Origin: Marsupella aquatica
Lineage: Eukaryota > Plantae > Marchantiophyta
Reading direction: 5' to 3'
NCBI GenBank assembly: GCA_973895155.1
Contig: OZ316896.1
Location: 3,944,738-4,008,737, forward strand
Length of the DNA: 64,000 nt
Part shown: in pieces, positions 1 through 18,650 of the stretch
Position numbering within the stretch: the stretch's first letter is position 1
Layout of the letters: the number at the start of each line of letters is the position of its first letter
Position numbers and translations under genes: made by a program
The notes under the pieces: generated by a model
Databases searched by the model: none
The model's input: the letters and a program-made list of their open reading frames with translations, nothing else
What the model was told of the DNA's origin: nothing

Positions 1-74
1 CAACGGGAGAGGCTACAATAATAACCACATGGTGTGGTTTTGCCCCTATCTCGCTAGTAGCACGAAATAACCCC

Positions 75-2300
75 TCAGAATGAGCAATTTGGCGGACGCA
101 AATCTCCCATTGATGAGGGATCAAAATAAATCAAGCTCGCAAGGTTCTTGTCTTCACGTATGATACAGTCTGCAAACCCAGCATTTTGTATATCCTGCAG
201 GGATCGCAATTTCAGCCTCTCACCGACCGGCCGCACTAGTTGGTTTCCTTGACTATCAACTGATTTCTGTATTCCTTCCACCAACCTGTAGAATATAGGG
301 TCGATCTCCTTCAACAAATTATCATTACTAATATTTACATTTAAGCACTTCTTCAGATAACCACTCAACGCATCTCTCAACTGCTTCAGCACCATCTTGT
401 CGAGCTTAAAGCGATCAATCATTCCTTTGACCCGCAATTTCCGCGCTGAATCTGTCAGACTTTTCAGCTCCGTCCGGGTGGATGTTTCCCCATTGAGTTT
501 ACTCAATAATAAAATCTCAAACTCAACTTTCATCTTCTTCTTTATACAGAATTGCTCCAAACTCATGCTGGTCGTTGACAACACTCGAGCCTCAGAGGAC
601 TTCCTCGCCTTCCCAGATTTCACTTTGATGCTTTGGTTTTTGAGTATAGACAGTCTTCCGCTCAACATATATTCCGCTGCCTTTCGAAGAACCGAGTCTG
701 AGCACCCTTGACAAGAACGGAACGTCTTCTTTAGAAGATGATAAGCACATGGATTATCCGCAATTTTGACGGTGTCCCTCTGTAAAATTCTGTTGTAAAT
801 TACAAGCTCTCCTGTCCTTGATAGTTCATAGACCTCCATCCACTTCTTGAATGTTTCGTCCTCCATTGTAAAGAGAAACGGAGCCAATTCTCCAAATTTC
901 ATCATTTCGTTCTTCCCCATTTGAGCCCATGGGCAGACAAAACTCGTAGCTCTCATAAATACCTGAAAAACAATGGAAACATGACAATTCTAAGCTTGAC
1001 GCGACCATTCGCGTGACAAAAGTTTATACGATAATGTGATCGAAGAGGGTTATTTATATACCTTCCAATTTGGATGACGATAATGTGATCCAGGCCACCC
1101 AAATGAGTTCCAGATATTACGACACTGTCGTACAATGGTGAGAAACTGTCCTTCTTCCATTGATGTTTGATGACAGTGGTTCAAAGCTTTTGATAATCCC
1201 ATCAAATGAACATTATTGTCGTTGTTGAGCGTTGCCCAAAACATTATAGCTTCTACAGTACCGCAAGCGTCTCGTACAACTTGGCTGACTTTGTCGTCCT
1301 CTCTCAGCAATTTGTACGCCATTATTGTGTGCTGGCCTTCGAGTATCCAGAAATGACTGGTCATAATGTCCTCCTCCTTTGGCGATGAATCGTAGGGCAT
1401 CCCATTGTAGTCGGGATCTCTGTCGGCCTCCGACTGAACCCACTTCACAGGGACTAAAAAGCAGCATTGCTTCTCGAACTTTATAGCCGAATGAGAGAGG
1501 AGTGAATTCTTTAGCCTATCTGTGTAATCCTGATTCCACTCTCGGCACTTGATGTGGTCCGGTGCAAGATGACAACGTGATGTCTCAACAAAAAATGACT
1601 TGCTGTTAAATATATTCACAGCACTATATTCTTTGAGGAAAGAATCAAACAGAGCCCCGACATTCGCTGAGGTAATTACTTTCGGAAGATTCTCCGCCGA
1701 GTATATTTCAACCTTGCTCACTGGCGGGGCCTTTCCCAAGCAAAATCCCTGGTTGAAAGGAACTCTCTGGAACTCAAGTACGTCAATAATGTATTGACAA
1801 ATCAAATCTCCCGTTGATGCCTCTGGATCGGAAGGATATCCCACACTAGTAACCTTTTCCAAGGCGTGCCTTGCACCTAGAAGATCATCGATTATGGGTT
1901 GATTGAAGGTTACATATTGCGTTCGATCCAAACAAATGCTTATTTTGTCTTCCTGCTGGTCGTCGCTGACTAGCAGAACCAATCCCTCTGTACACTCTTT
2001 AACTTTCATGTTCTTCTCAAAGAAACACCCGAGAATTTTTGATCTCTCCAAAACTGTAGCTTTATCATTTCTTGCCACCACAAGACGGACAGCCCCATTG
2101 CGAACGACTATTCCAAAATCGGATATCTCAGTCGATTCAAAGAGATGGATACTCTTTGTCTCCGTTGTTCTCTCTCTGATTGACTTTCCTCGATATGCAA
2201 GTATGGATGTCTCTGCGGGAGTCATTTTTGTCTTGGCTTTCTTTCGAGAAGCAGCTTTAGACGAGTCTCTTTTCCGCTTTGAGGTTCCGATAGGATCCAT
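75..2300 (-). CDS. ParB/Sulfiredoxin-fold protein, two exons (2300-1062, 962-75); possibly continues past a frameshift beyond the window start
   Basis: ORF 1050-2300 shows the ParB/Srx pattern CREWNQDYTDRLKNSL...FWILEGQHTIMAYKLL...VEAIMF...LSKALN. A 99-nt GT..AG intron (1061-963; AAG|GTATAT...TTTTTCAG|GTA) joins it in phase 0 to ORF 75-956 (NWK|VFMRATS). The N-terminus is NLS-like (KRKR, RKKAK). Confidence 0.7.
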
Positions 2301-2375
2301 TCTTAAATAGACAAATATTGAAAGTTAAACATTTATTATAAAATACTAACACGCACATGGTCGCGTCGTGCCGAA

Positions 2376-2906
2376 TTACATTTTAGGAACATTTATCCTG
2401 ACCCAATCTTCTCGCTCATCTTCATCTAACCAAAACCAAAGGTTCCTAAATGTGTCAAGTTCAGATCCTTCAAATCCACCCAAAATGTCCAGCGGCGGGA
2501 GAGTTCTGATGGATTCTGTAAATCTTAATGCTACACTCCGTGAAGTCAAATGCCTTCGAAGCGATTCATATCCTGGTCTATCAGTGAAGTCGTAAGCTAC
2601 CAAGGTGACCGTCGCCCATGTACTACTATAAGTAACTATGTGGCACCACTTCTTACTGACTGTTCGAATGGCGATCAAGTCCATGACCCGATTTTTAATC
2701 GCAGTATTCGACAAATTCCCAAGACAGTGGAAAAACTCTTTGACTAATGGCCAAATATATTTCTCGACAATATCATCCGGAAGACCGGGTATCAGGTCTT
2801 CAGCTTGACTCCATATCATGTTTCGGTTCATAACCTTTGCACGTGCAATGCGCTCCATCATCATTTGACAATGAGATTTTTGATTCATGTCAAAGGACTG
2901 CAGCAT
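2376..2906 (-). CDS. F-box-like protein, paralog 1
   Basis: LIPGLPDDIVEKYIWPLV...IRTVSKKWCHIV is a plant F-box signature with an internal insertion. Intronless, 176 aa. Confidence 0.7.
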   Translation of the reverse strand: MLQSFDMNQKSHCQMMMERIARAKVMNRNMIWSQAEDLIPGLPDDIVEKYIWPLVKEFFHCLGNLSNTAIKNRVMDLIAIRTVSKKWCHIVTYSSTWATVTLVAYDFTDRPGYESLRRHLTSRSVALRFTESIRTLPPLDILGGFEGSELDTFRNLWFWLDEDEREDWVRINVPKM

Positions 2907-2940
2907 AATATGGAAAAGATTAAGAACAAGACCCTATCCA

Positions 2941-3507
2941 TTAAGAACTGGGACCACCGAGATTCTGAGAAAATCTACCAAACCTTTCGATTAGGACATC
3001 TCGTTCTTCCTCATCTAAATTCCTATATTTGTTTGTAAACAATGCGATTTCATCAGAAGTAGTAGTCCCAAGAACAGATATTTCTGGAAGCATAGAAATA
3101 TCCTGTCGAATAACTCGATAGACTGAGTCAAACTCCAACTCCTCAGTTTCGGGTATGTCGTAAAGAGCATCATTTGCGACATCGACAATCCGGTTTGCTT
3201 GTTTGAGGATAGTCCATAACCTTGTATTTGTAACTAAAAAGTTCCACTTCTTGCTACAAGCTCCAAGCCGAATAAGGTCTCGGACCCTATTGATAACCAA
3301 ATCGTTATCGAGGTGTCGATATCCACGCAATCTTTCAATTGAAATAAAGTGTTCGTAGAGTATTGGCCAAATGTTTGAAATGACCAAAACATCTGGTATT
3401 CCTCCAATGAGACTAGAGGAGGTTTCATCCAGCGTATCCCATATTGTTTTCTGTTTCTTTTCATGAGATGAAAGGAAATCTCGAGTCTCATTCAAAAGTT
3501 GGCTCAT
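2941..3507 (-). CDS. F-box-like protein, paralog 2
   Basis: LIGGIPDVLVISNIWPIL...LGACSKKWNFLV. The C-terminal LPEISVLG..EIALF..LDEEER motif is shared with paralog 1. Confidence 0.68.
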   Translation of the reverse strand: MSQLLNETRDFLSSHEKKQKTIWDTLDETSSSLIGGIPDVLVISNIWPILYEHFISIERLRGYRHLDNDLVINRVRDLIRLGACSKKWNFLVTNTRLWTILKQANRIVDVANDALYDIPETEELEFDSVYRVIRQDISMLPEISVLGTTTSDEIALFTNKYRNLDEEERDVLIERFGRFSQNLGGPSS

Positions 3508-3572
3508 CCTGCTTTTATCATATCACAAAACATTGTTAGAAGACATACGACGCGCTTCGTCACGTAAGTTAA

Positions 3573-4124
3573 CTAGAATTCCTTAAAAGCGTAGATGTCA
3601 CCCTCAAGGTATCCAACTTCGTGGCATCTGACTGTAAATTTCCATTTTTCAAGAGGGTGAAGAGCATTGTAAGTCTTCGTGAAGAGTTCCCTAAGATCTC
3701 TGGACATTGACCCCATGAATTTAATTCTTGGGTATTTCTGGAATAAACTTTGAACTGTCGATGAGAGAGACTCATTTCCGATCGGTTTAGTAGGATTTCC
3801 TGGGAAAGCCAAATCTAATAAACTCAACTTGATTACACCCAGAATATAGGTATTCCCAACAAGGTGGCGCCATCTGCGACACACCGAAGATAGTCCTACA
3901 AACTCATCCAATTCCTTTATTGAGAAATTTCCTGCATTAGCCGAGGAATTAAAAGTCTCCTGGATCCGAGGCCATATCAATTCCGCGACAATGAAATCTG
4001 GAAGTCCAGGTAGTAGTGTTTCAACAAATACAGAATATCCCGCAAGTAGACCATCTTGGCTTCTGTCCAAAACGTCAAATATTGGGCATAGATATCTGAA
4101 GCTCTCTAGACCAGGTTCGCCCAT
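3573..4124 (-). CDS. F-box-like protein, paralog 3
   Basis: LLPGLPDFIVAELIWPRI...LSSVCRRWRHLV. The C-terminal YPRIKFMG..LRELF motif aligns with paralogs 1 and 2. Confidence 0.68.
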   Translation of the reverse strand: MGEPGLESFRYLCPIFDVLDRSQDGLLAGYSVFVETLLPGLPDFIVAELIWPRIQETFNSSANAGNFSIKELDEFVGLSSVCRRWRHLVGNTYILGVIKLSLLDLAFPGNPTKPIGNESLSSTVQSLFQKYPRIKFMGSMSRDLRELFTKTYNALHPLEKWKFTVRCHEVGYLEGDIYAFKEF

Positions 4125-4263
4125 GACTCTTTTCAGCCAAATGATATATCCCAGAGATTATATTTCACGCGACTGGTCGCGTCTACAAATCAGAATGCAT
4201 AAACAATTCTTTGAGAGACTGATTTTTTCGGGTCACAACGTGAAATCATAAATATTGCTTCGT

Positions 4264-4850
4264 CCTCTAACAGAACCAGTCAATGAGAGAGCAACCTCAG
4301 ACGCGACTGGTCGCGTCAATTGAACCTAAATAACTATATCCACTGAACCTTCTGCGGAGATTTGGATATGGTACGCGCTCAGTAAATCTATCCAGTTTCC
4401 TTCTCACACGCGATTGGTCGCATCAACTGGTCCTAAAAGGAACCCTACCTCCTCTAACAGAACCAGTCAATGAGAGCTCTACCTCAGACGCGACTGGTCG
4501 CGTCAACTGAACCTAAACAACTATATCCACTGAACTTTCCTTGTGGAGATTTGGATATGGTATGCGCTCAGTAAATCTATCCAGTTTCCTTCTCACACGC
4601 GACTGGTCACGTCAACTGGTCCTAAAAGGAACCTTACCTCCTCTAACAGAACCAGTCAATGAGAGAGCAACCTCAGACGCGACTGGTCGCGTCAACTGAA
4701 CCTAAACAACTATATCCACTGAACCTTCTATGGAGATTTGGATATGGTACGCGCTCAGTAAATCTATCTAGTTTCCTTCTCACACGCGACTGGTCGCGTC
4801 AACTGGTTCTAAAAGGAACCTCACAGTATTTTCACACGACTGGTCGCGTC
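4264..4850. repeat. Tandem repeat, ~188-bp unit x3, two 18-bp palindromes per unit
   Basis: CCTCTAACAGAACCAGTCAATGAGAG starts at 4264, 4451 and 4640. ACGCGACTGGTCGCGT variants at ~4300, 4408, 4487, 4596, 4676, 4783, 4833. Confidence 0.95.
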
Positions 4851-7384
4851 AACAGCTGAAACAACTTTTGGACAATAGGATAATACAGTGATACAACTGT
4901 GATTACTGACCCGTACGGACAAGGAAATCCGAGGAAGCATAATCATTCATTTGTATTCATTCATGAACTTTACAATAATTCAGATGTTTGAGCTCTGTCA
5001 TTGTGAAACTATTATATATTAGAAGTTTAGAGAATGATCCAGCTAAGATGATTCAATTTAGCAGTCTACTGGTTGTATTCGTCAATTAAAGGATTCAATT
5101 TAATGAGATTCACATAACATGAGAGTTTATATGATTAAATTCACAGCGTGCAAGTTTGTAATGACTTACTTAAGACGATTCAGGTTGTATTTTAATTAGT
5201 GAGTTTGTATGATTCACACATATTTGAGTTTACAAACAAACCGCATTATGAAAATTGTGCTTAACAATCAAGAGAAATTTTAGCAAACCACAATCAACAC
5301 CAGCAGAAAATGTAGAAATTACACCTGAATTCTGAAAAATTGATGTAATCGCCTGAGAGATTGACGTCCAAGCACTTGAACACCTTGCTGCGGCATTCCA
5401 GAAAGTAAATATAAGTTTGAAGATATTAATATGCTAAGCAACAACAACACAGCTTCTATACTTCTATACATAGAGCTTCGCTGCCACCAATTGAATAACA
5501 TGTGCTTAATGCTAAGGAGCTCATTATGTTGAGTTAAAAAGATTCTTTCAGAAGTACAATCAAAGCTGTGGATAGGCAAACTGAGCATGAATAAAAGCGC
5601 ACTAAACCTGAAGATTCAAAGAGGTGAAACAAACCAGAATGCTGAATGGAAGGAGCTAAAACAAGCTGCCAAAAAGTAGTTCGAGCTGCTGAAACACGTT
5701 GATCGAGCTGATATGAGCTTAAAATTGGCTGACACGAGCTGATACAAGCACTCCCAAAAAGCTAGCTGCAACGAACTAGCAAACTAGAAGTGAATACGAG
5801 CTGTAAATGCGAGCTGCAATGCGCCAACGAGCTCCTGGTCGAAACGATGGACAACTACTAAGAGTTGCAATGCGCCGACAAGCACCTGACCACAACGAAC
5901 GAGCTGCAACGACAAAAATAAAATCCAGGGCAGGAGCGAGAGCGAGAGCGACGAGAGCAGGCGCGCAAAAGTCTAGGGAGCGAGAAACAACAACAATGAA
6001 CAATGAACTCGAGACCGTGGGTGCCGACACTAAGGAAGGACTAATTAGGGTATTGTTTTAGCATAACCCTAATAACAGCCTAGCGACAGGAAGGTTCCAG
6101 ATGATCTCCGTACACTCCACCATCGACTGAACAAACTATGCAATCGTGAAAAAAAGATTATCGGATTCTTTTTGATTTTCCGTACTAAAGGAGATTTCTA
6201 TTTGATGGCCAATTTGAAATTTAAATCGGTAATTATGCAACTACAAAAGATTATTAGTGGGGACCCCCGGATCCGGATCCGTATCTTCACTATATCTGCC
6301 AATTCAAATCCAAAATGTGAACGAACAACAACTTTCTCACGATCGTTCCATCACGTAGTGGAGGCAAACTTCAAAATCATTCCATTTTGGTAGTGGAGAC
6401 CGTCGGATCCGGATCCGTACTCCACTCTCTATCTTGCCAATTCAAACCCTTACTCTAAACAACGTAAAACAATTCTCACGGTCGGGGAGAACCGATATTC
6501 AAAATCAATCCTGTACAATGATTCTCACAACTGGAGACTCAACCAATTTTCAAAATCAAAATCGAGTCCAGATGAACACATCCTCCATGGAGTCAATAGA
6601 CTGATCTCATTGCTCACGGATCATTCTTCATTTTCAGTTTCTCCTGACCAGGATACTAGCTGGGCTCTCAGTGGAGGCTGATCCAAGGCACATTTGAGGT
6701 GGAGCAGATTGGATCATTCGACTATTCCAGTCGGAGGCGGAGCTCATTCAAGCAACGCTGGCGCAGTTCTTGTTGTATCACCTTCAATCTTGGGGAGAGC
6801 ACATCCGATCAAGTGGGAGAGTTGCGACGAAGTGAGACGACAAACATTTAGAACCTCCATAGTCTACCTCATTCATCGAAGCATTCTAGCGGACCAACAA
6901 AGAGCGGCTATTCTGAAATCACAGTCTAGTCGAGGATTTTGATCTTGATATGATCAACAAGTTGTCATTCTCTGGTGGTGGGATTCGATCACGATACTCA
7001 AGGAAATTGGAGTTCGAAGGAGGAGGCTTAGTTGGCTGGGACGAGGAGGGTACGCTTGAAGGAAGAGGCTTGGCTGGGAGGAGGGTTTCCGCCAACATCG
7101 GAGGGTTGCCGCCAACATTGCTTAGACCACACGCAACTGAATAACTTGTAAGTATCAATCAGCATTAATTCCACAATAAATGAGGAGAGTAGTTGCCTTA
7201 AATCACGCATTCAATGCATGAATTGAGTCAATGAAGTTATGGTCCAATTTCTCACTCCGAGTTTGATCAATCCGTGTTTCAAGTCCAATACAGAAGCAAT
7301 GTATCAGAAGTACTAGTAGAGGATCCGAATGAATTCTCTAGTCTAAAATTGTATGGCGTACGCGTATAGTTGTCCGTACGTTTT

Positions 7385-8335
7385 GCTATTGTTTATTGTA
7401 GTCGACGGCCTAGCAAAACGAAACGTAATCGAGGTCCATTTTTCAGATCTTCCTGATCTCAACTTGTTAGTAGGATGACCTGTTTTTTGGTTACACATGC
7501 AGTTCGTCACGCGCACAGTCGCGTGAACCAATTTATCTCGTGTCTTTTGATATTGTTTATTGTAGTCGACAGCCTAGCGAATTGGCCAGAAATCTATTTT
7601 AAAACCAACGTCTTCGTTTCATCATGCGCACGGTCGCGTTAATGTTTTAGAGGTCAGCAAAAGTTCTGCACTCTTAGATGTAATCGCCCTTTATTTCAGA
7701 GATCTTCCTGATCTCAACTTGTTAGTAGGATGACCTGTTTTTTGGTTACACATGTAGTTCATCACGCGCACAGTCGCATGAACCAATTTATCTCGTGTCT
7801 TTTGATAATGTTTATTGTAGTCGAAAGCCTAGAGAATTGGCCAGAAATCTATTTTGAAACCGAGTTCTGATTCACACGACCGGTCGCGTTAATGTTTTAG
7901 AGGTCAGCGAAAGCTCTGCACTCTTAGACGTAATCGCCCTTTATTTCTCAGATCTTTCTGATCTCAACTTGTTAGTAGGATGACCTGTTTTTTGGGTTAC
8001 ACGTGTAGTTCATCACGCGCACAGTCGCGTGAACCAATTTATCTTGATATTGTTTATTGTAGTCGACTGCCCAGCGAATTGGCCAGAAATATATTTTAAA
8101 ACCGAGGTCTTTGTTTCATCACGCGCCCGGTCGCGTTAATGTTTTAGAGGTCAGCGAAAGCTCTGCACTCTTAGACGTAATCGCCCTTTATTTCTCAGAT
8201 CTGCCTGATCTCAACTTGTTAGTAGGATGACCTATTTTTGGTTACACATGTAGTTCATCATGCGCATAGTCGCGTGAACCAATTTATCTCAGGTCTTTTT
8301 GATATTGTTTATTGTAGTCGACAGCCTAGCGAATT
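7385..8335. repeat. Tandem repeat, ~250-bp unit x~4, with degenerate palindromes
   Basis: AGATCT(T/G)(C/T)CTGATCTCAACTTGTTAGTAGGATGACC recurs at ~7445, 7699, 7950, 8197. CACGCGCACAGTCGCGTG-type motifs occur about twice per unit. Confidence 0.95.
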
Positions 8336-8508
8336 GTCAGTCAGAGGAATCTTGATTTTTCCTTGATTGCAAAAATGGTTACATCGATCCCGAAGGACTT
8401 CGGATGTGGAATCCATATCCACTAGCACTATCCAGGAATTTAAGCTACACAGTATCTATAACAAGTTCTAACTTGAACTACTCTTGAATCTGTAGTTCTA
8501 ATCTTCGA

Positions 8509-9081
8509 CTACTCAAAATATTGTTGACTTCGATCGAGTAAGTCATTCCAAGATGAAGGGATCCACTCATCGGTGTCTGGTGTGGATTCCCTTGAATCCA
8601 TAAATTCTTCCTTTGCCCAAGTCCTAACGTCCATAGATTTTCTCGGCTTGCTCTTTCTGTAATACAAATCAGAATCTTTGTTCATCTCTAATTGCCTTTT
8701 CTTCGGTGCGTCCACTTTCTTGGCCTCCTTCTTGACTGTCTCAGCGTCTGCTGCTGCTTCCCCCGAAATGGATTCGACGCATGCTCTGGCCTTCAACTTC
8801 TCCCCCCTCAAAACGGATTCCACGAGGGCTTTGCCCTTTAACTTCTCCCCTGATGCCATCTTTGTAGTCATCTCTGTCGGATTGGTGTCCATCTGATCTT
8901 CCATCGACAAATGTGGCGAACAATGTCCTCTCTCACAAAACATTTGACCCGATTTAGTCACCGTAAACATTATATTACATCGCTGACACATTCTGTAAGG
9001 AGTACCCCGAATTTGATACGTCAAACCTTCTGAATCGTCCGTCGAAACATCCTCATTCTTTGAGCTCAGCGGAGTAGTCAT
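8509..9081 (-). CDS. Small Zn-ribbon-like protein of unknown function (element passenger)
   Basis: 190-aa ATG ORF with CQRC-x13-CERGHC and a basic C-terminal patch (PKKRQ, YRKSKPRK). Confidence 0.5.
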   Translation of the reverse strand: MTTPLSSKNEDVSTDDSEGLTYQIRGTPYRMCQRCNIMFTVTKSGQMFCERGHCSPHLSMEDQMDTNPTEMTTKMASGEKLKGKALVESVLRGEKLKARACVESISGEAAADAETVKKEAKKVDAPKKRQLEMNKDSDLYYRKSKPRKSMDVRTWAKEEFMDSRESTPDTDEWIPSSWNDLLDRSQQYFE

Positions 9082-9264
9082 CGCCCTTCAAACAAGAGAT
9101 GTTGACCGAGACTAAGAATTGGAAATGAGAGAGCTGATGTACGAATAGATTATCCAGTAGCCAGAAAGTGGAATGCATGGGGGAATGAGCAATAGAGATC
9201 ATCTCAATGCTTTATACTGTTTAGTCTCCACTAGTCATTGTACATAGTGGTTTCTAGAAGAGGG

Positions 9265-10100
9265 TGCGCGTTTGACTGGCGCGTATTAGAATTGGCGGGA
9301 AGTTCAGTTGTCCGGTGTCCACTCATTGGTAAACTGGTACTGTCCACCCATTTTTCCTGAGTGGAGTTGAAATGATTTTTCGTAATCGATTGTAGTCGTT
9401 CTCATTCACTTGAAATGACTGACGGACCATGCATTATCTTTACCGGTATGTGTGATGCCTTTAGATCCGTAATTGTATCTTCCTGTCTCGCGCGTAATCG
9501 TATCTTACTTATGAAGTACCAATTACGAGCTAGAGTTTGGGCCTAGCCTTCTAGCTTCTACGTCGTAGACCCTGTACCCTCTGACTAAGGTCACGCGACA
9601 TGCCTTTAGATCCGTAATTGTATCTTCCTGTCTCACGCGCAATCGTATCTTACTTATGAAGTACCAAGTACGAGCTAGAGTTTGGGCCTAGCCTTCTAGC
9701 TTCTACGTCGTAGACCCTGTTATCCCTACACCCTCTGACTAAGGTCACGCGACTAGTCGCGTGCAGGGCAGTGCATTGACTACATTCTGCCTACTTATTG
9801 ACAGTTGTGACAGGACAATGCAGTTCACGGACGTTTTACTGGCGCTTATTAGCACTACTGTCCTCAGTAGTTACTGACTGTCCACTCATTTGTTTTGAGT
9901 GGATGTGAAATGATTGATCGTAATCGATTGTGGTCATTCTCATTCATTTGACATGACTGACGGACCATGCATAGTCTGTTGCCGGTATGTGTGGTACCTC
10001 TAGGGTCACGCGACCAGTCGCGTGCAGCGCAGTGCATTGACTACATTCTGCTTATTGACCGACGTGACAGGACAGTGCAGTGAAATTGACGGACGTGACA
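9265..10100. repeat. Nested direct duplications in the divergent intergenic region upstream of the transposase
   Basis: TGCCTTTAGATCCGTAATTG at 9456 and 9601 (145-bp unit); ~9270-9452 resembles ~9830-9992; 9745-9830 resembles 10005-10095. Palindromes at 9746 and 10007. Confidence 0.9.
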
Positions 10101-10129
10101 GGACTATACGCTTACAGTGATATTCTCTG

Positions 10130-13100
10130 ATGTGCAGGATCATAATTATTATGGTGACATCGATAGTCTGGATCAGGGAAGGCGGACAAGTAATTATAGG
10201 CATACGTGAGAAACAGGTTGGAAAAGGTCGCGTGATAAGTCTTGATCCTTCCAGGGTTTGTCACAATGTTCCTCTTGGGGCGGACAGAGTTCTTCTTCTA
10301 TTGGAGGAAGTTTTTGATGAGACCATTCTATGCGAAGATGGCAAAATTTTGAAGGACATGATTGGGGGTTACCTTGTATGGGAAAGGAATCAGCTTTTTT
10401 GAGCTCCCATGGAATCAGAGGATGTGTTTGGCACTGTTGGTGATGATCAAGATCCAGTCAATCAAAATTCTGATGGGAACAACCATAATGAGAGTCGGTC
10501 TGGTGTGGAAGTAGTTTTACCAAAGGCCTTGTGGATGGCATGCCTGTAAAGGTGGTGGATGAGAACAAGTTGATATTTGCAGTGGCAACTATACATGTTC
10601 TAGATCCTATAGTCAAGCTTGGGGATGTCACCCTTGGGAATACACATGTGGGAATTCTGATCAACGATTTTGTCGAGGGAGCTACCATAGATCATCTGAA
10701 GCATAGAGATTGCTTAAAAGCTTGGTCGATGGACCAACTCATTGCCAAGGATGGCAACTTGTTGTCTTTCCACAACATCAGGCAAGCTGTGGGAGGGAAC
10801 ACATCTCCAACAAGTGGCAAGCAGTCCTACGTCCATAAAAGTAGGAAAAGAAAGAGTCCATCTTCCCAGACATCTAGAAGAGACACATCTTTGGCACGTC
10901 AAGATGTGTTGTTGATAAACACTAAGGACTGTTGTAGTGAACATTGTTGCCAATATTTGGACCGCAACTTGGCTATGGAAATTAGGCAAAAGTGGTGGTC
11001 AAAATCTTTTGCGGAGCGCAAGGAGGAGGAAATCAAGGCTATTAAAAATACAATACACTTGGGTACTGGAGAAAGGATTCTAGCAGTGGAGGGCAAAGTA
11101 TTGTGCTTGGAGGCATGGAGAATCATTCATTCAAGAGGAAAGACTCAATTTTATGCCTTCAAGAAGACTGTGATGGCTGGAATGAACATAGGTACCCATG
11201 GTAATGCTGGAAAAAGGCGTATGTCCGAGAAAGTATCTCAAGCGTTCATGTCAATGAAAGAGATTATTGAGGAGGCAGCTGATCATCATCCAGCCAAGTT
11301 GAGAACCATGGCAGATAATACAAGGATGGTTTTGAGGGAATTGCCAACAAATCTTACTTGGGAGAATATTAGAAACAGGGTTAATGTTGTCAACCAGGAG
11401 GCTGGTTTTCCTCCAATTTCCCAACCCACCTTGAGTCATCTACATCACATGTATTTCAGGGAGTTCTCACGTCACAAAAAGGGCAACAACTTTTCAAAGT
11501 GTACAACTTGTAGTGAGTTGCTTCAACGGAAAGCAAACCTTACAGGAGCTAAGGAAGAGTTAGAGGGCCTAAGGCGTGACGAGGAGGAACATCACCAAGA
11601 CCACACATAACAAAGAATGTGCTATCATACCTGGAGATATGAGTCCATCCATCGTCCAAAGGAAGTGTTATGCCTTATTCATGATAAGATGGATCATTCA
11701 AAGACAGCTCTCCCAAGAATGCCCTTCAATCCTAAGCATGTGGATGGTGCCCAAAAGTTCCCAATTACTGTCACTGGTATCCTTACTCATGGTCATGGTC
11801 CCAAGGCCATAGCCCAATATCATGTTGGAGTGTGGCCAGGTGATGTCAACATCACTATTGGGTCAATTGATTCAATACTAAGGATGTTGGAAAACCCAAA
11901 TCCAATGATCAAATCACTTGTGGAGGGGCCAGACTCAACAAGTCTTTTTAAAGACCTCCTTTTTGGGAGAGCAGATATCTTGGAGGCAAGTGTCCTTAGA
12001 GCATTTGAGGATGACATTGCCTACATCTCAAGCCTAGGTACTTTACTCACAATCCTTTAATTTATTATTATTTAATAATATAAGCTCACACACACTAACA
12101 CTCTACTTTGTGTAGTTGTTGCTCCTCTTAGCCAAGGTTTCATTAATAGGGTTTAAACCCTAAACCCTAAATTGGGGTTTAGGGTCTGACTAGGGTTTTG
12201 TTTAAAAGCATTCTGAGATTGTTACATTGTGATGTAGCACCTGAGGCACCAAAGTTCAGGCCCCTTCCACGAGTATTGAAGCTACAACTGGATAATTGTG
12301 CCTCAGACAACAAGAACAGATATATGATGGCTTATTTGTCATTGTTGACGGCAAGGGAGGTGTTTGAAGAGGTTCATCTTGGTTTTATGGTGGTTGGGCA
12401 TACTCATGAGGACATTGACGGTATGTTCGGGCATTTTTCAGAGTCTATGATGCATAACCCCACATACTCATTGCCTGAGTTAATGTCCTTGTTCATGAGA
12501 GCAAGGACACCCAATGCAGTCCCATATTTTCTACAGGAGGTCCCAGATTTCAAAAACTACTTAGCTCCATTCATGTTGAAGGGCCCTGAGGCATTGGTGG
12601 GGCATTTAAAACCCAGGCTGTTTAGGTTCTATGTTCGTCATGATAGTATGCCATGCTTCCAATACAAAATGAAGTCAACTGATCAGGGATGGTTACCCAA
12701 GGAAGGTATTGAAATGTGGTCATGGAAAGATGACAAAAGTCCTCACATCCCAATTGGGGTGCCCAAACGGCTACCAATGATGGAGTTGAAAATGCTTCCT
12801 GAAGTGCTGACAGGGTTGAAGAAGCATGTGTCATTCTTTGAGTTTATTCTAAAGCGAACAAAAGAGGAAGAACCAAAGCGACGTTGGACAACTCTCATCA
12901 ATTATTGGAATGACATTGTAGATACTCTACAGGGTGAGCAGGTGCAATATGAACCTGAAGGTGCACACAACTTGGAATACGGGTTTTGGCCTTTATCAAT
13001 ATGGAGAGAGCACGTTCCACCAGAATATCGAAATGTGGCATGTGAGTTGGAGGCAACAGTGGATTATGTGGGACCAACAAAAGATAAACCTCCTGAGAGT

Positions 13101-13526
13101 TTTAACCCTAGGGTTGATGTTGTGAAGGGCTGTTATGTGTTGGTATGGCCGGACGACTCAGACCTGGATGTTTATCCCGTCCATATGGGGTTAGTTGTTA
13201 CAGATGTGGTAGAAGGACCAGTGAATGAACAAAACCTTCTTACTCATGTATGTGGCGTTGAGTGGTTTAGACCATTTATGGCAAAGAAGCAACGTGGTCA
13301 ATCAGACTGGCAGCCCAGAGAGCGGTGGGCAGATTCTTGGGATAAGAAATGGGAACGTGATCCATCTCCAATATACAAGGAAGCTGAGACAATAGATGTT
13401 TCCTCTGCCTTGTGGTGTTTCAAAGCACGCAAAGGACCAATGACAGGGCTGGTAGGAATTCCAAAGAATGTTGCTGTCAAGGCAAGAGACTATCTCTTGA
13501 CATGCATAGCAAGTGACAAATCCTAG
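10130..13526 (+). pseudogene. Disrupted DDD/E transposase, Sola-like/DUF7869-type, with two N-terminal Tnp1/En/Spm-like domains
   Basis: Motifs CCSEHCC, FSKCTTC, LIHDKMDHSK, LQLDNCASDNKN and VGHTHEDIDGMFG. N-terminal GRVISLDP..HNVPLG..GGYLVW and ATIHVLDP..GDVTLG..KAW repeats. Lesions: TGA at 10400-10402, a frame change near 10500, in-frame TAA at 11608-11610. A phase-1 intron 12038-12237 joins the last two ORFs. Confidence 0.75.
12146..12199. repeat. Plant telomere-like repeats in both orientations inside the transposase intron
   Basis: TAGGGTTTAAACCCTAAACCCTAAATTGGGGTTTAGGGTCTGACTAGGGTTTT. Confidence 0.75.
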
Positions 13527-13619
13527 ACAGTAATGAAGCATGTAGTTTAGCATACAGTTTAAAAGGCAACTCAGAATAGTAGTAGCTAGAGAACTCAAGT
13601 TTAGACAAGTTTTATCGTC

Positions 13620-14195
13620 TAAGTTAGTTAGTTGGTTAGTTTATTTAAGATATAATATTAGTTAGTGGGCCCTTAGTTTGGTGATATTAAGGCATGATAT
13701 TATTGACATTCAAATGAATGTCCAGTAGACATTGTAATATACAACAATCCTATTAATAAATAATAATTATAGTTACACCCTCAAGTGAACTCAACTTTCA
13801 ATGATTTCTGATTTTATATGGTTCCATGCCTGATTGAGTCAAAGCAATAGAAACTAACTAATTAAAGGGTGATACTATAATTGTAGGTCACGCACCCTGG
13901 TGCGTGTCAATCTTTTTTGTATTCAACCCTATAGTAATTAAATAGACAAGTTAGTTAGTTGGTTAGTTTATTTAAGATATAATATTAGTTAGTGGGCCCT
14001 TAGTTTGGTGATATTAAGGCATGATATTATTGACATTCAAATGAATGTCCAGTAGATATTGTAATATACAACAATCCTATTAATTGTTGTAAATAAACTA
14101 ATTAATTAAAGGGTGGTACTTACTATGATTGTAGGTCACGCACCCTGGTGCGTGTCAATCTTTTTTGTATTCAACCCTATAATAATTAAATAGAC
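13620..14195. repeat. AT-rich direct duplications downstream of the transposase
   Basis: ~13620-13755 matches ~13947-14082; ~13880-13945 matches ~14128-14195. Each of the latter pair carries CACGCACCCTGGTGCGTG. Confidence 0.9.
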
Positions 14196-16541
14196 AATTG
14201 AAACAATGAATGATAGTTTAATTAAGGATTTGTGCATGGATCAAGAGGTACTTGATGTCATTTAGTGATGCATTGTTATAAAGATCTTGCAACAAAACAT
14301 TTGAAGTTTTTGACTATCCCACCAAATGTTAAAGAGGTTGATCATTCATTAACTAATAATATTTAGATAAAATTGGAATTAATCTAATACTTCAGTATTC
14401 CTTAAATTGGGGTTAAGTTGTAATTATACAACACACTGCCAAAGAAAAAAGCTTCAAACTCAGAGAAAAGACTTTAAAGGCAGGTGACCCAAGAAAGGGG
14501 AGAAAAAAAGGAAACTCCAGGATGACCATGGCCCAAAGGACTGAAAGTTGCACAGTACAACAAAGGAACTAAAGCCCTACTCACCAGTAAACTTAAAAGA
14601 CTGGTAAAGCTGAGGAGTAAACTACACAGGAGGGTCCCAAGGAAGCATTTATTTAGAGTCCCTATTCCCAACGGGAACCCAACAGCCTCAGCCATTCCTA
14701 ATTAAAGAGTGAATGCCTGAGCCAGGCTCTATAGTGCAGAAAAACTGGGAAATAAGGCTGCGTCTCTACAAAAAATATCCTAGGCTGCATGGTTGCACAA
14801 CCATCTCTTTGGGCTTGGGACAGTCCCCAGGGATCGTTATGTAAGGGACACCTTACATGATTGAGCCCCCAAAACTTCCAAAGCTAAACAAATCCCCAAG
14901 TGAAGGTAGCCATCTGCATACCCCTCCTTCTCCTTGACCAGGGCTGCCTTGGCTGATAATTAGTATTACTTTATGTATACAGTAATGCCCTGGTGAAGAG
15001 ACATGATGAGCCATAACTCCCCCAAAATGAGAGCTTTAGCTTGAGTTTTGAGGGGCTATTGTTGCCCAGAATGCCCTTGCAATAGGGCATTACTGAACAC
15101 ACTTTAAGTTCTAAGAGATTCACGCTTAAAGGTCTAAGATATTCAATCTTAAGTTTTTGGTCCAAGTCTATACTATGCACTTTTCTCAATAGAAGCACCA
15201 AAATTTACTAACGGAAAGTCAATAAGAACATTAAGACAGTTACCCAAGAGGTAGAAGCCCAAGCGTGTGATGAAAGAAGAAGCTAAAATGCCAAGAGTTT
15301 GCTAGGTTTTCTTCTGTTTTGTATGGTAAAATTGTGAGTTACGTATGCTTAAATTGATTGATGGGGTCATTGCATAAGTCCTAGTATTCAAAGCAAGGTG
15401 TGTATTGTATAAAATATATTATGCTACATATGAAAAACAAAGCCAAACCTAACTAAAGTCTTTAAGTACACAGGCCACAATGCCCTGGAAAAATTGCTTT
15501 AGCTCAGGGGCTACTACTGCTGATATTTCAATATATATATACCTGTGCGTTGCACAAAATAAGTAGTTGTGCAAAAGATGTCGTTGCATAAAAGATGTCC
15601 ATGTGAGAAATGTGTCATAGCACAATACGATGGTATTGAAAAAGATGTTGCATAAACAATTTATTTGCATAAGGATGTCTTTGAGTGAAAGATTTCTTTG
15701 CATAAAAGATGTTATTAAAAGATGGCATGGAAGAAGTCATTGAAGAAAAGGTCGAGGTGCCATAGAGGCAAGGTGACCAGATCCATGGACGCATGATGGC
15801 AACTGTGAGGTCCAAATAGGGCCATGCCACTATTCACTTTTTTCCTCCTCTCCCCCCTCCTTCTCTCCTCCCCCTCCCTAGTACATAAGGGAGGCAGTGG
15901 GCGAGGGCAAGGCCCAAGGAAAGGCAAGTGGGCATAGGGGGCAGGTAAGAGGTGGACAGACTGTGGGTCCCCCTTGCTATGTTCTCTTTCCCAGAGGCAT
16001 TTGGTCCATCTTTCTCCCACCCCTCGTGCTCCTCGAGAAAAAAAAAACCCATCTGATGTGGTTCAAGCTACTATAAATGTGGATATTTTTGGTCAAAACA
16101 AGTGGTAAAAACAGTGTATGGTGCCAATGGGTTGTAAGGAAATTAAACTAATCCCACTAGGAAGGCAAAAGGCTATTGGGGCAAAAGAGAAACCTCCTTG
16201 CAAACCTGTATGTTGGGTGTCTGATGCAAACATGACATTAGCTATGGACAGAAAACCTTAAAACCGGCAATAACCATAAATAACGCTATCAATGTTAGGA
16301 AGACCTTAATAAGGGGTCTACCTCAAAATTTGATGGACTAAGTTAAGGTTACCATTAGACTACCAAATTCATAATCCATATTAAGTCTTTGTCATCAAGA
16401 TTGGTCATACAATAACCATAAATAATGCTATGTTAAGAAGATCTTAATAAGGGGTCTACCTCAAAATTTGATGGACTAAGATATGGTTACCAACAGAAAA
16501 AACATAAAAATTTTAGGATCACCAAATTCATAATCCATATT

Positions 16542-16897
16542 TGTTGAGCATAGAAAACAATCGTAACGGTAAACACATGACACACCCAATGCGTAACTAA
16601 TCGACACAAGAGATATGTGATTCACCTCCTCGAGGCAACATCCACATGAACAAATAAGAGAGCTTTACCAAACTCTAAGCCCGTCGGTCACACCAAGTGT
16701 CCACAATGTAAGACAGTTCTCTTCTTCTCTCAAGTGATTCGGTAACAATGAGCCTTAGTTCCACATATCCTATCAAGCACCGTTTAGAATATAGTGTGTA
16801 ACTTAGTCAACTTCACCACGTCTTTGATCACGATTAACTTAACTACAATTACATGTCATAAGCCTACTGTAGATGTAATAGTAAATACCTCACAACA
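16542..16897. mobile_element. Probable solo LTR (~356 bp)
   Basis: TGTTG...CAACA ends. It interrupts the second copy of a local ~140-bp duplication (16268-16409 vs 16410-16540 + 16898-16925). No clean TSD. Confidence 0.5.
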
Positions 16898-17289
16898 TTA
16901 TGCTTTTGTCATCAAGATTGGTCATATGCCATGATCACAAGTCAATGTAGAGTCTAGTGATGAAAAAAGAAAAGACTTTTACAAAACCATGTGAAATAGA
17001 TATGGTCATTTGTTCCTGGTCAAAAGCCGTCATCCCAAAACCTTGAGACCCCCAATTAGTCCCCCTAGTGAGTCGATCCAAATCTTGACAGTGCATGCTT
17101 CGCACGACCTCAGATGTACATCTAAAGAGAAAGGTCTCGAGGGGCACTAAGTTTTTCAAACAGTCTGCGTCCTCGTTCTCGCCAGTCGTGCTCCATGGTG
17201 CCTTTCCAGACCGTGGCCTGATTCTATCGTTGGAATTAGTACTTTCCACCCTCAAAAGGGGAGCTTTTTGACGAGGTTATTCCATGATC

Positions 17290-17452
17290 CATGAAGCTGT
17301 CGTTTCTTTTTTGCCTCGAAGGTTTCGAAGAATTCGATTACCTGAAGCTGCTATTGAGTTTTTGCCTCGAAGGTTTCAAAAAATTCGATTCCCTGAAGCT
17401 GTGATTGAGTTTTGCCTCGAAGATTTCAAAGATTTCGATTCCCTGAAGCTGT
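17290..17452. repeat. ~46-bp tandem repeat x3-4
   Basis: Recurring (C)TGAAGCTG...TTTTGCCTCGAAG(G/A)TTTC...TTCGATT. Confidence 0.85.
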
Positions 17453-17974
17453 TCTTTGTTCACTTCGGCAAACATTGTCGTTTCTCTTCGAAGCTCGAGA
17501 AAGACAATCAGACCTAGTCCGCATACCCTGACACCGCTCGAGATCAGCAGGGTAGTCCTTCGAGCTGTGGTTTGTTTGCTGAGGGGAAGCCCTGCAGACC
17601 AGCAGGTTTTCTTGGATCATGTATGTACGTCCAATGTCTCGTGCCCACTTCTCAAATAATCGTGGAAGGCAAATTGGTGGAAGTTTTGAAAGATTTGTAA
17701 GTGAATCCATCCTGCTTCTCCCGAAGGCTTGATTCGGAATTGGTATCCAATTACTGTCATGACATTACACGAGAATGTCAGGAGATCGTTTGGTTTTGAT
17801 ACTAGTTCCTCCTGAGAGATTGCCGGAGCTTTTGTCTCGAGGAGGTCTGGTGCCTAGCTGGTGGAGCTAAATAGACACTCTGTTTTGGAGAGAACGACAT
17901 TCTCATGAACAATCAAAGGAAGTGTTTCTAATTTCTATTAGTGGAGTAGCCAATGTGTCACGCGGCGTGTTCTG

Positions 17975-18529
17975 ATGGCTTTGTTGAGTTCTTCTTACCC
18001 TTTCAGTCGAAGCAGAGCTCTTCATGAAAGTACACAATTCTATTCCGTCAAGAATTCTATGCTATCCTTTGAGTCTTCTCCTGAGAGATTTTCGCTGCGC
18101 TCCGTTGCATCCCTCAGAGGATTAGGTCAGGCAGGTGTGATACGAGGCATTATCAGCGGAGCGCCTGCTCCAGGACTGAGTACTATGGCGCTTCAAGGAG
18201 GGGAAAGGGCTCCTCGACGTTTGGTTGATTTTGTAAGAGCTATTCCTAAAATATCGAGAGTGTATTTCAAAAGCCCTTTCAGGAGAGCTCTCTATGGAGG
18301 AATTTCTCTCCTGGGCGGATTTTTTGTTGCACATACGTTAACGCTTTCCTTGGGGGCATTGGGGTTAAATGACGTTGTTGCAGCTGCTGTCTCTCTGGTC
18401 GTTGCGGAGTACATCACTAAGTTTTATCATACTCGATCACAAATGACATTTATCGTCGCCCTTGTTAACAATTTCAAGATCGGATTCACGTATGGTTTGT
18501 TCATTGATGCCTTCAAGATAGCCAGTTGA
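17975..18529 (+). CDS. ycf20: Ycf20-like (DUF565) chloroplast-targeted protein, NPQ6-like
   Basis: Ser-rich transit-peptide-like N-terminus, then RRLVD..IPKISRVYFKSPFRRALYGGISLLGGF...NNFKIGFTYGLFIDAFKIAS, the typical plant DUF565 C-terminus. Confidence 0.88.
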   Translation: MALLSSSYPFSRSRALHESTQFYSVKNSMLSFESSPERFSLRSVASLRGLGQAGVIRGIISGAPAPGLSTMALQGGERAPRRLVDFVRAIPKISRVYFKSPFRRALYGGISLLGGFFVAHTLTLSLGALGLNDVVAAAVSLVVAEYITKFYHTRSQMTFIVALVNNFKIGFTYGLFIDAFKIAS

Positions 18530-18650
18530 GCCAGGCATCCTGCTGGGATCACTAGATCTTCTCATTCTTGGTAACAGTTTCTCATTTTTTAACAACAATC
18601 GTCGACAGAATCAGAAGATTTATTCATCGTATGGTTTCGTTTATTGATAC

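Follow-up and report, generated by a model that had tools for sequence, protein, structure and literature searches.

A 64,000-nucleotide stretch of the genome of the liverwort Marsupella aquatica (contig OZ316896.1, positions 3,944,738 to 4,008,737; hereafter the window) opens with a ParB-like gene and three F-box-like open reading frames (ORFs), F1, F2 and F3, packed closely on the minus strand. Here, we find that these genes are very likely the cargo of a multi-copy transposon with a Sola-like DDD transposase, regard a viral remnant as a very improbable origin, and conclude that they probably do not form a single operon. ORF calls on the minus strand bear out the layout described in an earlier sequence-only reading, four same-strand ORFs with gaps of 65, 34 and 75 bp:

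3573..4124, minus strand: F1, F-box-like ORF of 183 amino acids (ORF call; PF00646 at 15.6 bits, below cut-off; paralog alignments)
2941..3507, minus strand: F2, F-box-like ORF of 188 amino acids (PF12937 at 18.7 bits, below cut-off; paralog alignments)
2376..2906, minus strand: F3, F-box-like ORF of 176 amino acids, with an acceptor-like CAG at 2898 and palindrome-free upstream DNA (PF00646 at 18.2 bits, below cut-off)
1050..2300, minus strand: ParB-like ORF as first called, 416 amino acids (ORF call)

The stretch that holds this cluster also carries a transposase gene and one further ORF, and its probable right end lies within the window:

10130..13526, plus strand: Sola-like DDD transposase gene (DUF7869), broken (PF25273, E 1.3e-36)
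8509..9081, minus strand: 190-amino-acid ORF with a CxxC..C..H pattern, within the element
14412..14415: probable right end of the multi-copy element, placed from a contig start by 31-mer logic

The transposase matches PF25273 at 126 bits against a cut-off of 26, has a probable intron near 12.04–12.18 kb, and is disrupted in this copy by stops at 10400–10402 and 11608–11610 and an indel at 10536. By eye, its motifs (DKMD, LDNC..NKN and GHTHEDID) do not reproduce the Sola2 core (DFxEN, SDG and HGK..CDG) of the reference alignment in supplement S10 of PMC3627910, and on this comparison we label it Sola-like and set it apart from Sola2. Telomere-like TAAACCC repeats lie at ~12,150–12,185, within the probable intron.

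We mapped Logan contigs from four runs (X4, X3, X2 and X7) on positions 1–18,600 of the window. In X4, X3 and X2, contig depth is high in all 23 bins from 1 to 14,260 and drops at the host DUF565 gene. Depth in X4 is 492 over F1/F2, 399 at 6 kb and 698–729 over the transposase, compared with ~18 for zero-difference single-copy contigs, and in X2 it is 1260–1454 over the element compared with ~36, giving a copy number of about 20–40x. A single-copy contig begins at 14,386 in three of the four runs; from this we put the right end near 14,412–14,415 and the length of the element at 14.4 kb or more. More diverged copies retain the arrangement of the cluster: among the contigs of X2, some with 108 differences over 563 nt cross the F3/F2 gap and others with 57 over 372 nt cross the F2/F1 gap, and as contigs only ~80–85% alike still cross both, the gene order must be old. 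Run X7 gave low-depth, more diverged pieces of the element only. It bears the same species label as X2 and shows 26 differences across 974 nt of host sequence; this hints at a recent lineage-specific burst or at a differing label.

The cluster shares a multi-copy stretch of 14.4 kb or more with the DUF7869 transposase, so its members are very likely passenger genes of a Sola-like DNA transposon, and we hold it highly probable that cluster and transposase belong to one mobile element. Some features of the data weigh against this assignment. Contig depth is a rough measure of copy number, that the runs are DNA was judged from even intergenic cover, and the best-matching runs may include the source of the window itself; no contig among those listed bridges cluster and transposase; and the left end lies outside the window, which puts terminal inverted repeats and a 4-bp target-site duplication out of view.

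A second feature ties the cluster to the transposase. A motif scan located the 16-bp palindrome ACGCGACNNGTCGCGT and degenerate forms of it at the following places:

4167..4182: palindrome ACGCGACNNGTCGCGT, 42 nt ahead of the F1 start
3550..3565: degenerate palindrome (3 mismatches), 42 nt ahead of the F2 start
2351..2366: degenerate palindrome (3 mismatches, one private to this copy), 50 nt ahead of the ParB-like start
999..1014: palindrome inside the ParB-like intron
4263..4849: array of 3 tandem 189-bp units upstream of the cluster, containing 7 palindromes
7438..8336: array of 3.6 tandem 255-bp units, containing 7 palindromes
9747..10023: the final two palindromes, upstream of the transposase

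At up to three mismatches the palindrome occurs 20 times in the 64-kb window against 0.54 expected, and all 20 occurrences fall within 999–10,023, with none elsewhere. It precedes F1, F2 and the ParB-like gene at 42, 42 and 50 nt, two of these three sites carrying 3 mismatches, and is absent from the 34-bp F2/F3 gap. Random placement of four sites in non-coding DNA reproduced this spacing in 342 of 500,000 trials, for a 40–52 nt window that was picked post hoc. The intergenic spacers fold no better than shuffled DNA (z −0.48 to 1.49), a result that fits a double-stranded binding site better than an RNA hairpin and rules out a reading of the spacers as RNA-hairpin terminators; an Rfam scan returned one sub-threshold match, located outside the element. 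The palindromes are probably sites at which a protein binds to drive or protect the individual genes, and their position before three of the four starts suggests separate mini-promoters. Near the right end of the element, at 13,889 and 14,137, there is a second, longer palindrome-like motif that may be a site for the transposase.

The sequence-only reading had proposed a polycistronic or alternatively spliced transcript for the cluster, having overlooked both the transposon context and the palindrome, which together account for the tight packing. Within the same transposon, that proposal would amount to one promoter in the 189-bp array, a single pre-mRNA, and alternative splicing, leaky scanning or re-initiation. 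The gaps of only 34–75 bp and the grouping of seven palindromes upstream of F1 are compatible with it, as are an acceptor-like site at 2898 and donor-like sites at 2983, which would define an 86-nt intron, and at 3548. Yet F1, F2 and the ParB-like gene each have a palindrome ahead of them at a near-constant distance, pyrimidine content at the AG preceding F2 is no more than average, and the candidate splice from 2983 to 2898 puts F2 and F3 out of frame. We therefore regard a four-gene operon as unlikely, although a shared transcript remains plausible for the F2–F3 pair. Their 34-bp gap holds a CTTAAT that resembles a branch site, a tract of pyrimidines and, at 2898, TGCAG, the last being one of five among 878 minus-strand AGs to pass an ad hoc filter and the sole one in 1–4300, and we think it rather likely that F3 would be produced from the F2 transcript through splicing or re-initiation. 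A literature search on polycistrons gave no pertinent paper among the 12 of 140 records listed.

The palindrome-bearing arm and the transposase body differ in their content of CpG. Observed-to-expected CpG ratios are 0.73–1.34 in 14 of 14 bins from 1 to 10.5 kb and 0.10–0.42 in 8 of 8 bins from 10.5 to 16.5 kb (the final three reach past the element), the border coincides with the last palindrome, and the contrast between the F-box ORFs and the transposase has p 1.5e-6. Among the C losses private to this copy, 17 of 19 fall in CG or CHG against 35% expected (p 1e-6), a bias indicating that methylation has since reached this insertion, which is now decaying. By analogy, the retention of CpG in the palindrome arm and its loss from the transposase body resemble the pattern of VANC anti-silencing; the contrast could alternatively arise if the arm had been acquired later from unmethylated DNA, which would count against such a function.

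These data also bear on whether the trio might be ordinary host tandem F-box genes that lie beside a transposon by chance. The CpG content of the arm is host-like, and the LIPGLPDD stretch resembles the start of plant F-box/kelch proteins. But host genes of this kind would hardly exist in ~20–40 near-identical copies, share a palindrome with the upstream region of the transposase, or show the methylation-type decay of this copy, and we consider the idea largely refuted.

By sequence comparison, F1, F2 and F3 are true paralogs. BLASTP aligned F2 with F3 at 32% over 145 amino acids (E 2e-16), F1 with F3 at 31% over 127 (E 2e-13) and F1 with F2 at 23% over 159 (E 3e-11), confirming the description of three strongly diverged paralogs of ~180 amino acids (183, 188 and 176). 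At the DNA level the pairs are about as alike as shuffled sequence (local scores of 23, 31 and 25 versus shuffle maxima of 27, 27 and 31), and a search of the window with a profile built from the three revealed no fourth copy.

The proteins had been described as carrying an F-box with an insertion, and the insertion is evident: both halves of the motif, the LPD start and the L..V.KKW end, are visible in all three ORFs, parted by 17–24 extra residues. The alignments place 45, 52 and 46 residues between LPD and the KKW/RRW tryptophan in F1, F2 and F3, compared with ~28 in ordinary F-boxes. The family assignment is less secure, as all three ORFs score below the Pfam gathering cut-offs for F-box PF00646 (15.6–18.2 bits versus 20.5) and F-box-like PF12937 (13.9–18.7 bits versus 24.3), with profile alignments that cover the second half of the motif only. 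In agreement with the stated absence of kelch, LRR and FBA domains, no Pfam match to these or to WD40 was found in F1–F3 at E up to 1. The tail of 70–100 amino acids is novel; the short C-terminal motif reported for it is clear in F2 and F3 but weak in F1. Searching PDB sequences with the paralog profile gave three matches at E up to 10, among them the Skp2 F-box chain (E 0.74), which likewise aligns with the second half of the motif only. Homologue searches confined to proteins of similar length found none among 70 candidates for F2 and none among 1492 for the three-paralog profile, scans of viral contigs with the F-box profile and F3, which pick up mainly close relatives, returned no relatives, and an Atlas search of the ORFs gave leads only (best score 0.86). 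Together, the sequence evidence makes "F-box-like" a fair label and leaves membership of the F-box family below proof.

SCF and viral F-box proteins share an LPD start, hydrophobic helices and a V/C-x-K/R-K/R-W end. F1–F3 resemble them in these features and differ in being transposon-encoded, in their 17–24 extra residues, and in lacking a known substrate-binding domain. The suggestion that they act as SCF adaptors or decoys is plausible on these grounds, with the chances that they bind host SKP1 evenly balanced.

We asked what the reading frames say about selection. That all three ORFs are intact, as had been pointed out, is true of the open frames in this copy, but it says little: at 0.5–1.5% divergence from sister copies, the probability that three ORFs stay open by chance is 0.33–0.69, and as the insertion is methylated and decaying, open F1–F3 frames here are weak evidence. 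That three frames have stayed open while similarity at the DNA level was lost is a stronger argument for maintenance at the protein level. Synonymous changes were counted at 55 of 58 distinct listed sites in 1–4250 (from 40 of 597 and 40 of 1012 rows), leaving out three sites, one ambiguous and two non-coding. Among these few listed variants, 10 of 27 polymorphic sites overall are synonymous (p 0.048), and the F-box ORFs, with few listed sites, show 4 of 13 and no synonymous excess (p 0.32). Indels behave differently: five of eight clustered events lie within the 11% of DNA that is non-coding (p 0.0007; 12 of 13 rows), and none of the 12 listed rows falls in F2 or F3.

A less flattering account of the trio would treat the ORFs as host-gene fragments captured in Pack-MULE style, either functionless or encoding proteins past SKP1 binding. 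Sub-threshold scores on half a motif, the missing synonymous excess in a small variant sample, and the absence of homologues in three kinds of search are what this account would lead one to expect. It is harder to reconcile with three frames of similar length that retain 23–32% protein identity with DNA similarity nearly erased, which points to long protein-level maintenance, with indels that avoid the frames, or with equal motif spacing before F1 and F2, and we judge it improbable.

The fourth gene of the cluster probably comprises two exons:

1062..2300, minus strand: ParB-like exon 1, with a predicted PH-like fold at amino acids 36–180 and a predicted ParB/Srx fold at amino acids 230–380 (structure model, Foldseek, VIA)
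963..1061, minus strand: probable 99-nt GT-AG intron holding one palindrome (in-frame join; homologue ORFs diverge after W[KE]V)
75..962, minus strand: ParB-like exon 2, 295 amino acids, no known domain (Pfam and sequence searches)

The GT..AG intron (1061–963) joins exon 1 in frame to the ORF at 962–75 and yields 708 amino acids with no internal stop. Homologue ORFs diverge directly past the same W[KE]V position, as a shared intron would predict, which makes a spliceosomal intron probable and suggests that the ParB-like gene has long been resident in eukaryotes. At the stop of exon 2, many sister contigs differ by 2 bp, and in other copies the gene probably extends past it. Of the ParB gene described earlier, the likeness to ParB is supported by the predicted fold, and the single-ORF structure is not upheld.

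Sequence searches of Pfam, NCBIfam, PHROGs and PDB did not recognise the ParB-like protein, and no relatives were found in viral contigs, metagenome contigs, GTDB genomes or plasmids. Two close homologues share 46–47% identity with it, and a search among 50% representatives gave 29 matches, two of them apparently spurious (P0013 and P0027) and excluded from the alignments; P0002 and five further weak matches were excluded from alignment A3. A model from 23 sequences reached a predicted local distance difference test score (pLDDT) of 82.7. In this model, the domain at amino acids 230–380 is assigned a ParB/Srx fold, with VIA Z scores of 8.8 to PadC (root-mean-square deviation 2.9, 99 aligned) and 8.5 to KorB (2.7, 94 aligned); the top ten Foldseek rows are all ParB, Noc or SbnI (best E 0.006), and the N-terminal PH-like fold is weaker (Z up to 5.2). 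In Atlas, the ParB-like domain matches DUF3723 best (0.95; 182 of 256 features). This language-model match, made for window positions 1050–2300, hints at a ParB-like domain inside DUF3723; none of the 23 aligned ParB-like proteins has a Pfam DUF3723 match, and a literature search found no paper treating DUF3723 and ParB together. DUF3723 is described as a conserved accessory gene of giant fungal Starships (10.1101/2021.12.13.472469), which use a tyrosine recombinase (the DUF3435 captain), whereas the element here would be mobilised by a DDD transposase.

The cluster had also been called virus-like, a description that the evidence mostly does not support. On that view the locus would be an endogenous remnant of a giant virus or another virus, its genes compact, its F-box proteins viral and its 3' signals of the hairpin type, and it does hold dense small intronless ORFs, an arm undepleted in CpG, and, in F2, a low-scoring Atlas match to a Nucleocytoviricota cluster (0.84, a lead only). 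However, neither the F-box profile, F3, the ParB-like profile nor the transposase found relatives in viral contigs by scans that catch mainly close relatives, a probable spliceosomal intron interrupts the ParB-like gene at a position common to its homologues, the cluster is co-amplified with a DDD transposase, and the spacers are not hairpins. No viral hallmark genes were detected among 14 distinct window ORFs scanned by Pfam. A viral origin is thus very improbable.

ParB genes accompanied by inverted-repeat arrays are known from giant transposons of algae. In the red alga Bostrychia, giant Plavaka (EnSpm) elements are described as 17–19 kb DDE transposons with accessory genes, among them the ParB-homologous PAG3, which adjoins tandem inverted-repeat arrays and is proposed to bind its own element (10.1101/2025.02.11.637652). 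The element studied here resembles them in combining a ParB-like accessory gene with inverted-repeat arrays in a giant transposon. It differs in its transposase superfamily, in having single palindromes ahead of individual genes as well, and in domain content, PAG3 having a 2OG-oxygenase domain where we find an N-terminal PH-like fold and a C-terminal part without a known domain. In Ectocarpus, Sola1-1_Ec32 is a giant Sola element of 21.5 kb with a ParB-like gene, placed, as here, on the strand opposite to the transposase (PMC12477816). Its ParB-like protein has a DNA methyltransferase domain, which Pfam and exon 2 sequence searches did not detect here, and its host is a brown alga rather than a land plant. 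The term "F-box" has no occurrences in the available text of either paper. The Ectocarpus report was the only one found to combine Sola and ParB, and a review of giant transposons mentions none of F-box, ParB and Sola (PMC6431247). No description of the present element was found in literature on transposon F-box cargo, on Sola with ParB, or on Sola in Physcomitrella or Marchantia, where a single fern genome paper was listed; the literature covered mostly left subscription papers and Repbase outside. What is new is the F-box-like trio and the per-gene spacing of the palindrome.

Bacterial ParB-parS, Noc and KorB provide a second comparison. Palindromic sites of 16 bp are of the size bound by ParB-type dimers, and the predicted ParB/Srx fold at amino acids 230–380 is common to these proteins and ours. 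Unlike bacterial ParB, with which it shares 8–16% identity, our protein has the arginine of GxxR replaced, is not accompanied by ParA, and has a eukaryotic intron. A third comparison is with VANC; VANDALs are Mutator-like elements. In Arabidopsis, the accessory protein VANC binds to a short motif found in introns as well as in intergenic and terminal non-coding DNA, frequently within tandem repeats, and maintains hypomethylation of the element (PMC5735166). The layout here, with sites in an intron, spacers and tandem repeats, matches that of VANC, whose motif is a 9-bp non-palindrome where ours is a 16-bp palindrome; binding and demethylation, demonstrated for VANC, would here be deduced from the sequence.

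Taking these observations together, we lean towards a passenger-gene transposon in which palindromic mini-promoters are bound by an element-encoded protein and the F-box-like proteins dock on SKP1. In this model, the palindromes would be bound by a dimer that the element itself encodes, most likely of the ParB-like protein; this dimer would drive each gene from a minimal promoter and keep the palindrome arm unmethylated in active lineages. The trio would have arisen via tandem duplication of a unit of palindrome, ~42 nt and ORF in a size-limited transposon, which would explain the tight packing, and F1–F3 would bind host SKP1 and serve as decoys or adaptors that counter host control. The copy in the window would be a methylated, decaying insertion. 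As binder of the palindromes we give the ParB-like protein a narrow preference; the transposase is an alternative candidate that we rate clearly lower, and a host factor seems improbable. Transposases activate their own copies according to a preprint (10.64898/2026.08.24.746577). That blunting host silencing or quality control of the element is the purpose of the F-box-like proteins is a tentative suggestion that we rate below even odds.

Plant viruses hijack host SCF ubiquitin ligases against silencing factors. A more elaborate version, a ParB/parS-like circuit of bacterial style in which the ParB-fold protein, sitting at the palindrome of each passenger gene, holds the arm free of methylation and turns on fast-evolving F-box decoys hijacking SCF against silencing factors, is in our estimation unlikely.

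Several observations weigh against the model that we prefer. Leaders of 42–50 nt leave scant space for a TATA box plus a 5' untranslated region, and those of F2 and the ParB-like gene contain upstream ATGs. In the ParB/Srx superfamily, the GxxR motif carries a nucleotide-binding arginine; the window protein and the nine aligned homologues covering the site read GQH[T/S], without this arginine, and no helix-turn-helix was identified in the ParB-like protein from the exon 1 model and exon 2 sequence searches. For the F-box-like proteins, in addition to the half motif below cut-off, the large insertion and the missing synonymous excess, a fold model of F1 built from three sequences was uninformative (pLDDT 45) and its fold search gave no match.

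Few counter-defence systems of plant transposons are known (VANC and TnpA), and this element is a compact, testable candidate whose parts are one defined 16-bp site, one protein with a predicted ParB fold, and a CpG signal whose border coincides with that of the sites. It would carry the algal design of a ParB gene plus inverted repeats over to land plants and would show plant nuclear gene packing with spacers of 65–75 bp. Should F1–F3 prove to bind SKP1, the element would be a DNA transposon that acts on the proteolytic system of its host, a case that we did not find in the literature searched. A sequence-specific activator or demethylation pair, if true, would be a useful tool.

Relatives of the transposase were found at three metagenome loci, at 36–50% over short stretches, with no F-box-like or ParB-like neighbours at these loci by eye. 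One of these distant DUF7869 transposases (L003, 492–863) has a neighbour resembling a piece of a C5 cytosine methyltransferase, and the other two (L001, 213–698; L002, 1987–2457) have SET-like neighbour ORFs, in each case judged by motifs. Within the element itself, a multi-copy stretch at 4.9–7.4 kb has short ORFs only and, together with the 190-amino-acid ORF, may be further cargo.

Beyond the element, Pfam identifies the flanking host genes as DUF565 and a phosphoesterase, which point to a plant, presumably from an early-diverging land lineage. Positions 16,121–17,360 are occupied by a different, very high-copy repeat whose joints skip ~16,380–16,903. An 830-amino-acid reverse transcriptase frame of the long interspersed nuclear element (LINE) type, assigned by motifs, lies on the minus strand at 48,467–50,959 and is CpG-depleted like the transposase. 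The region 34,550–63,385 contains three RNase H ORFs (~67% identical) and a fragment, one SET ORF and two zf-MYND genes, one of them broken; with long frames, higher GC and duplicated blocks, these ORFs are fungal-type by impression and may reflect horizontal transfer.

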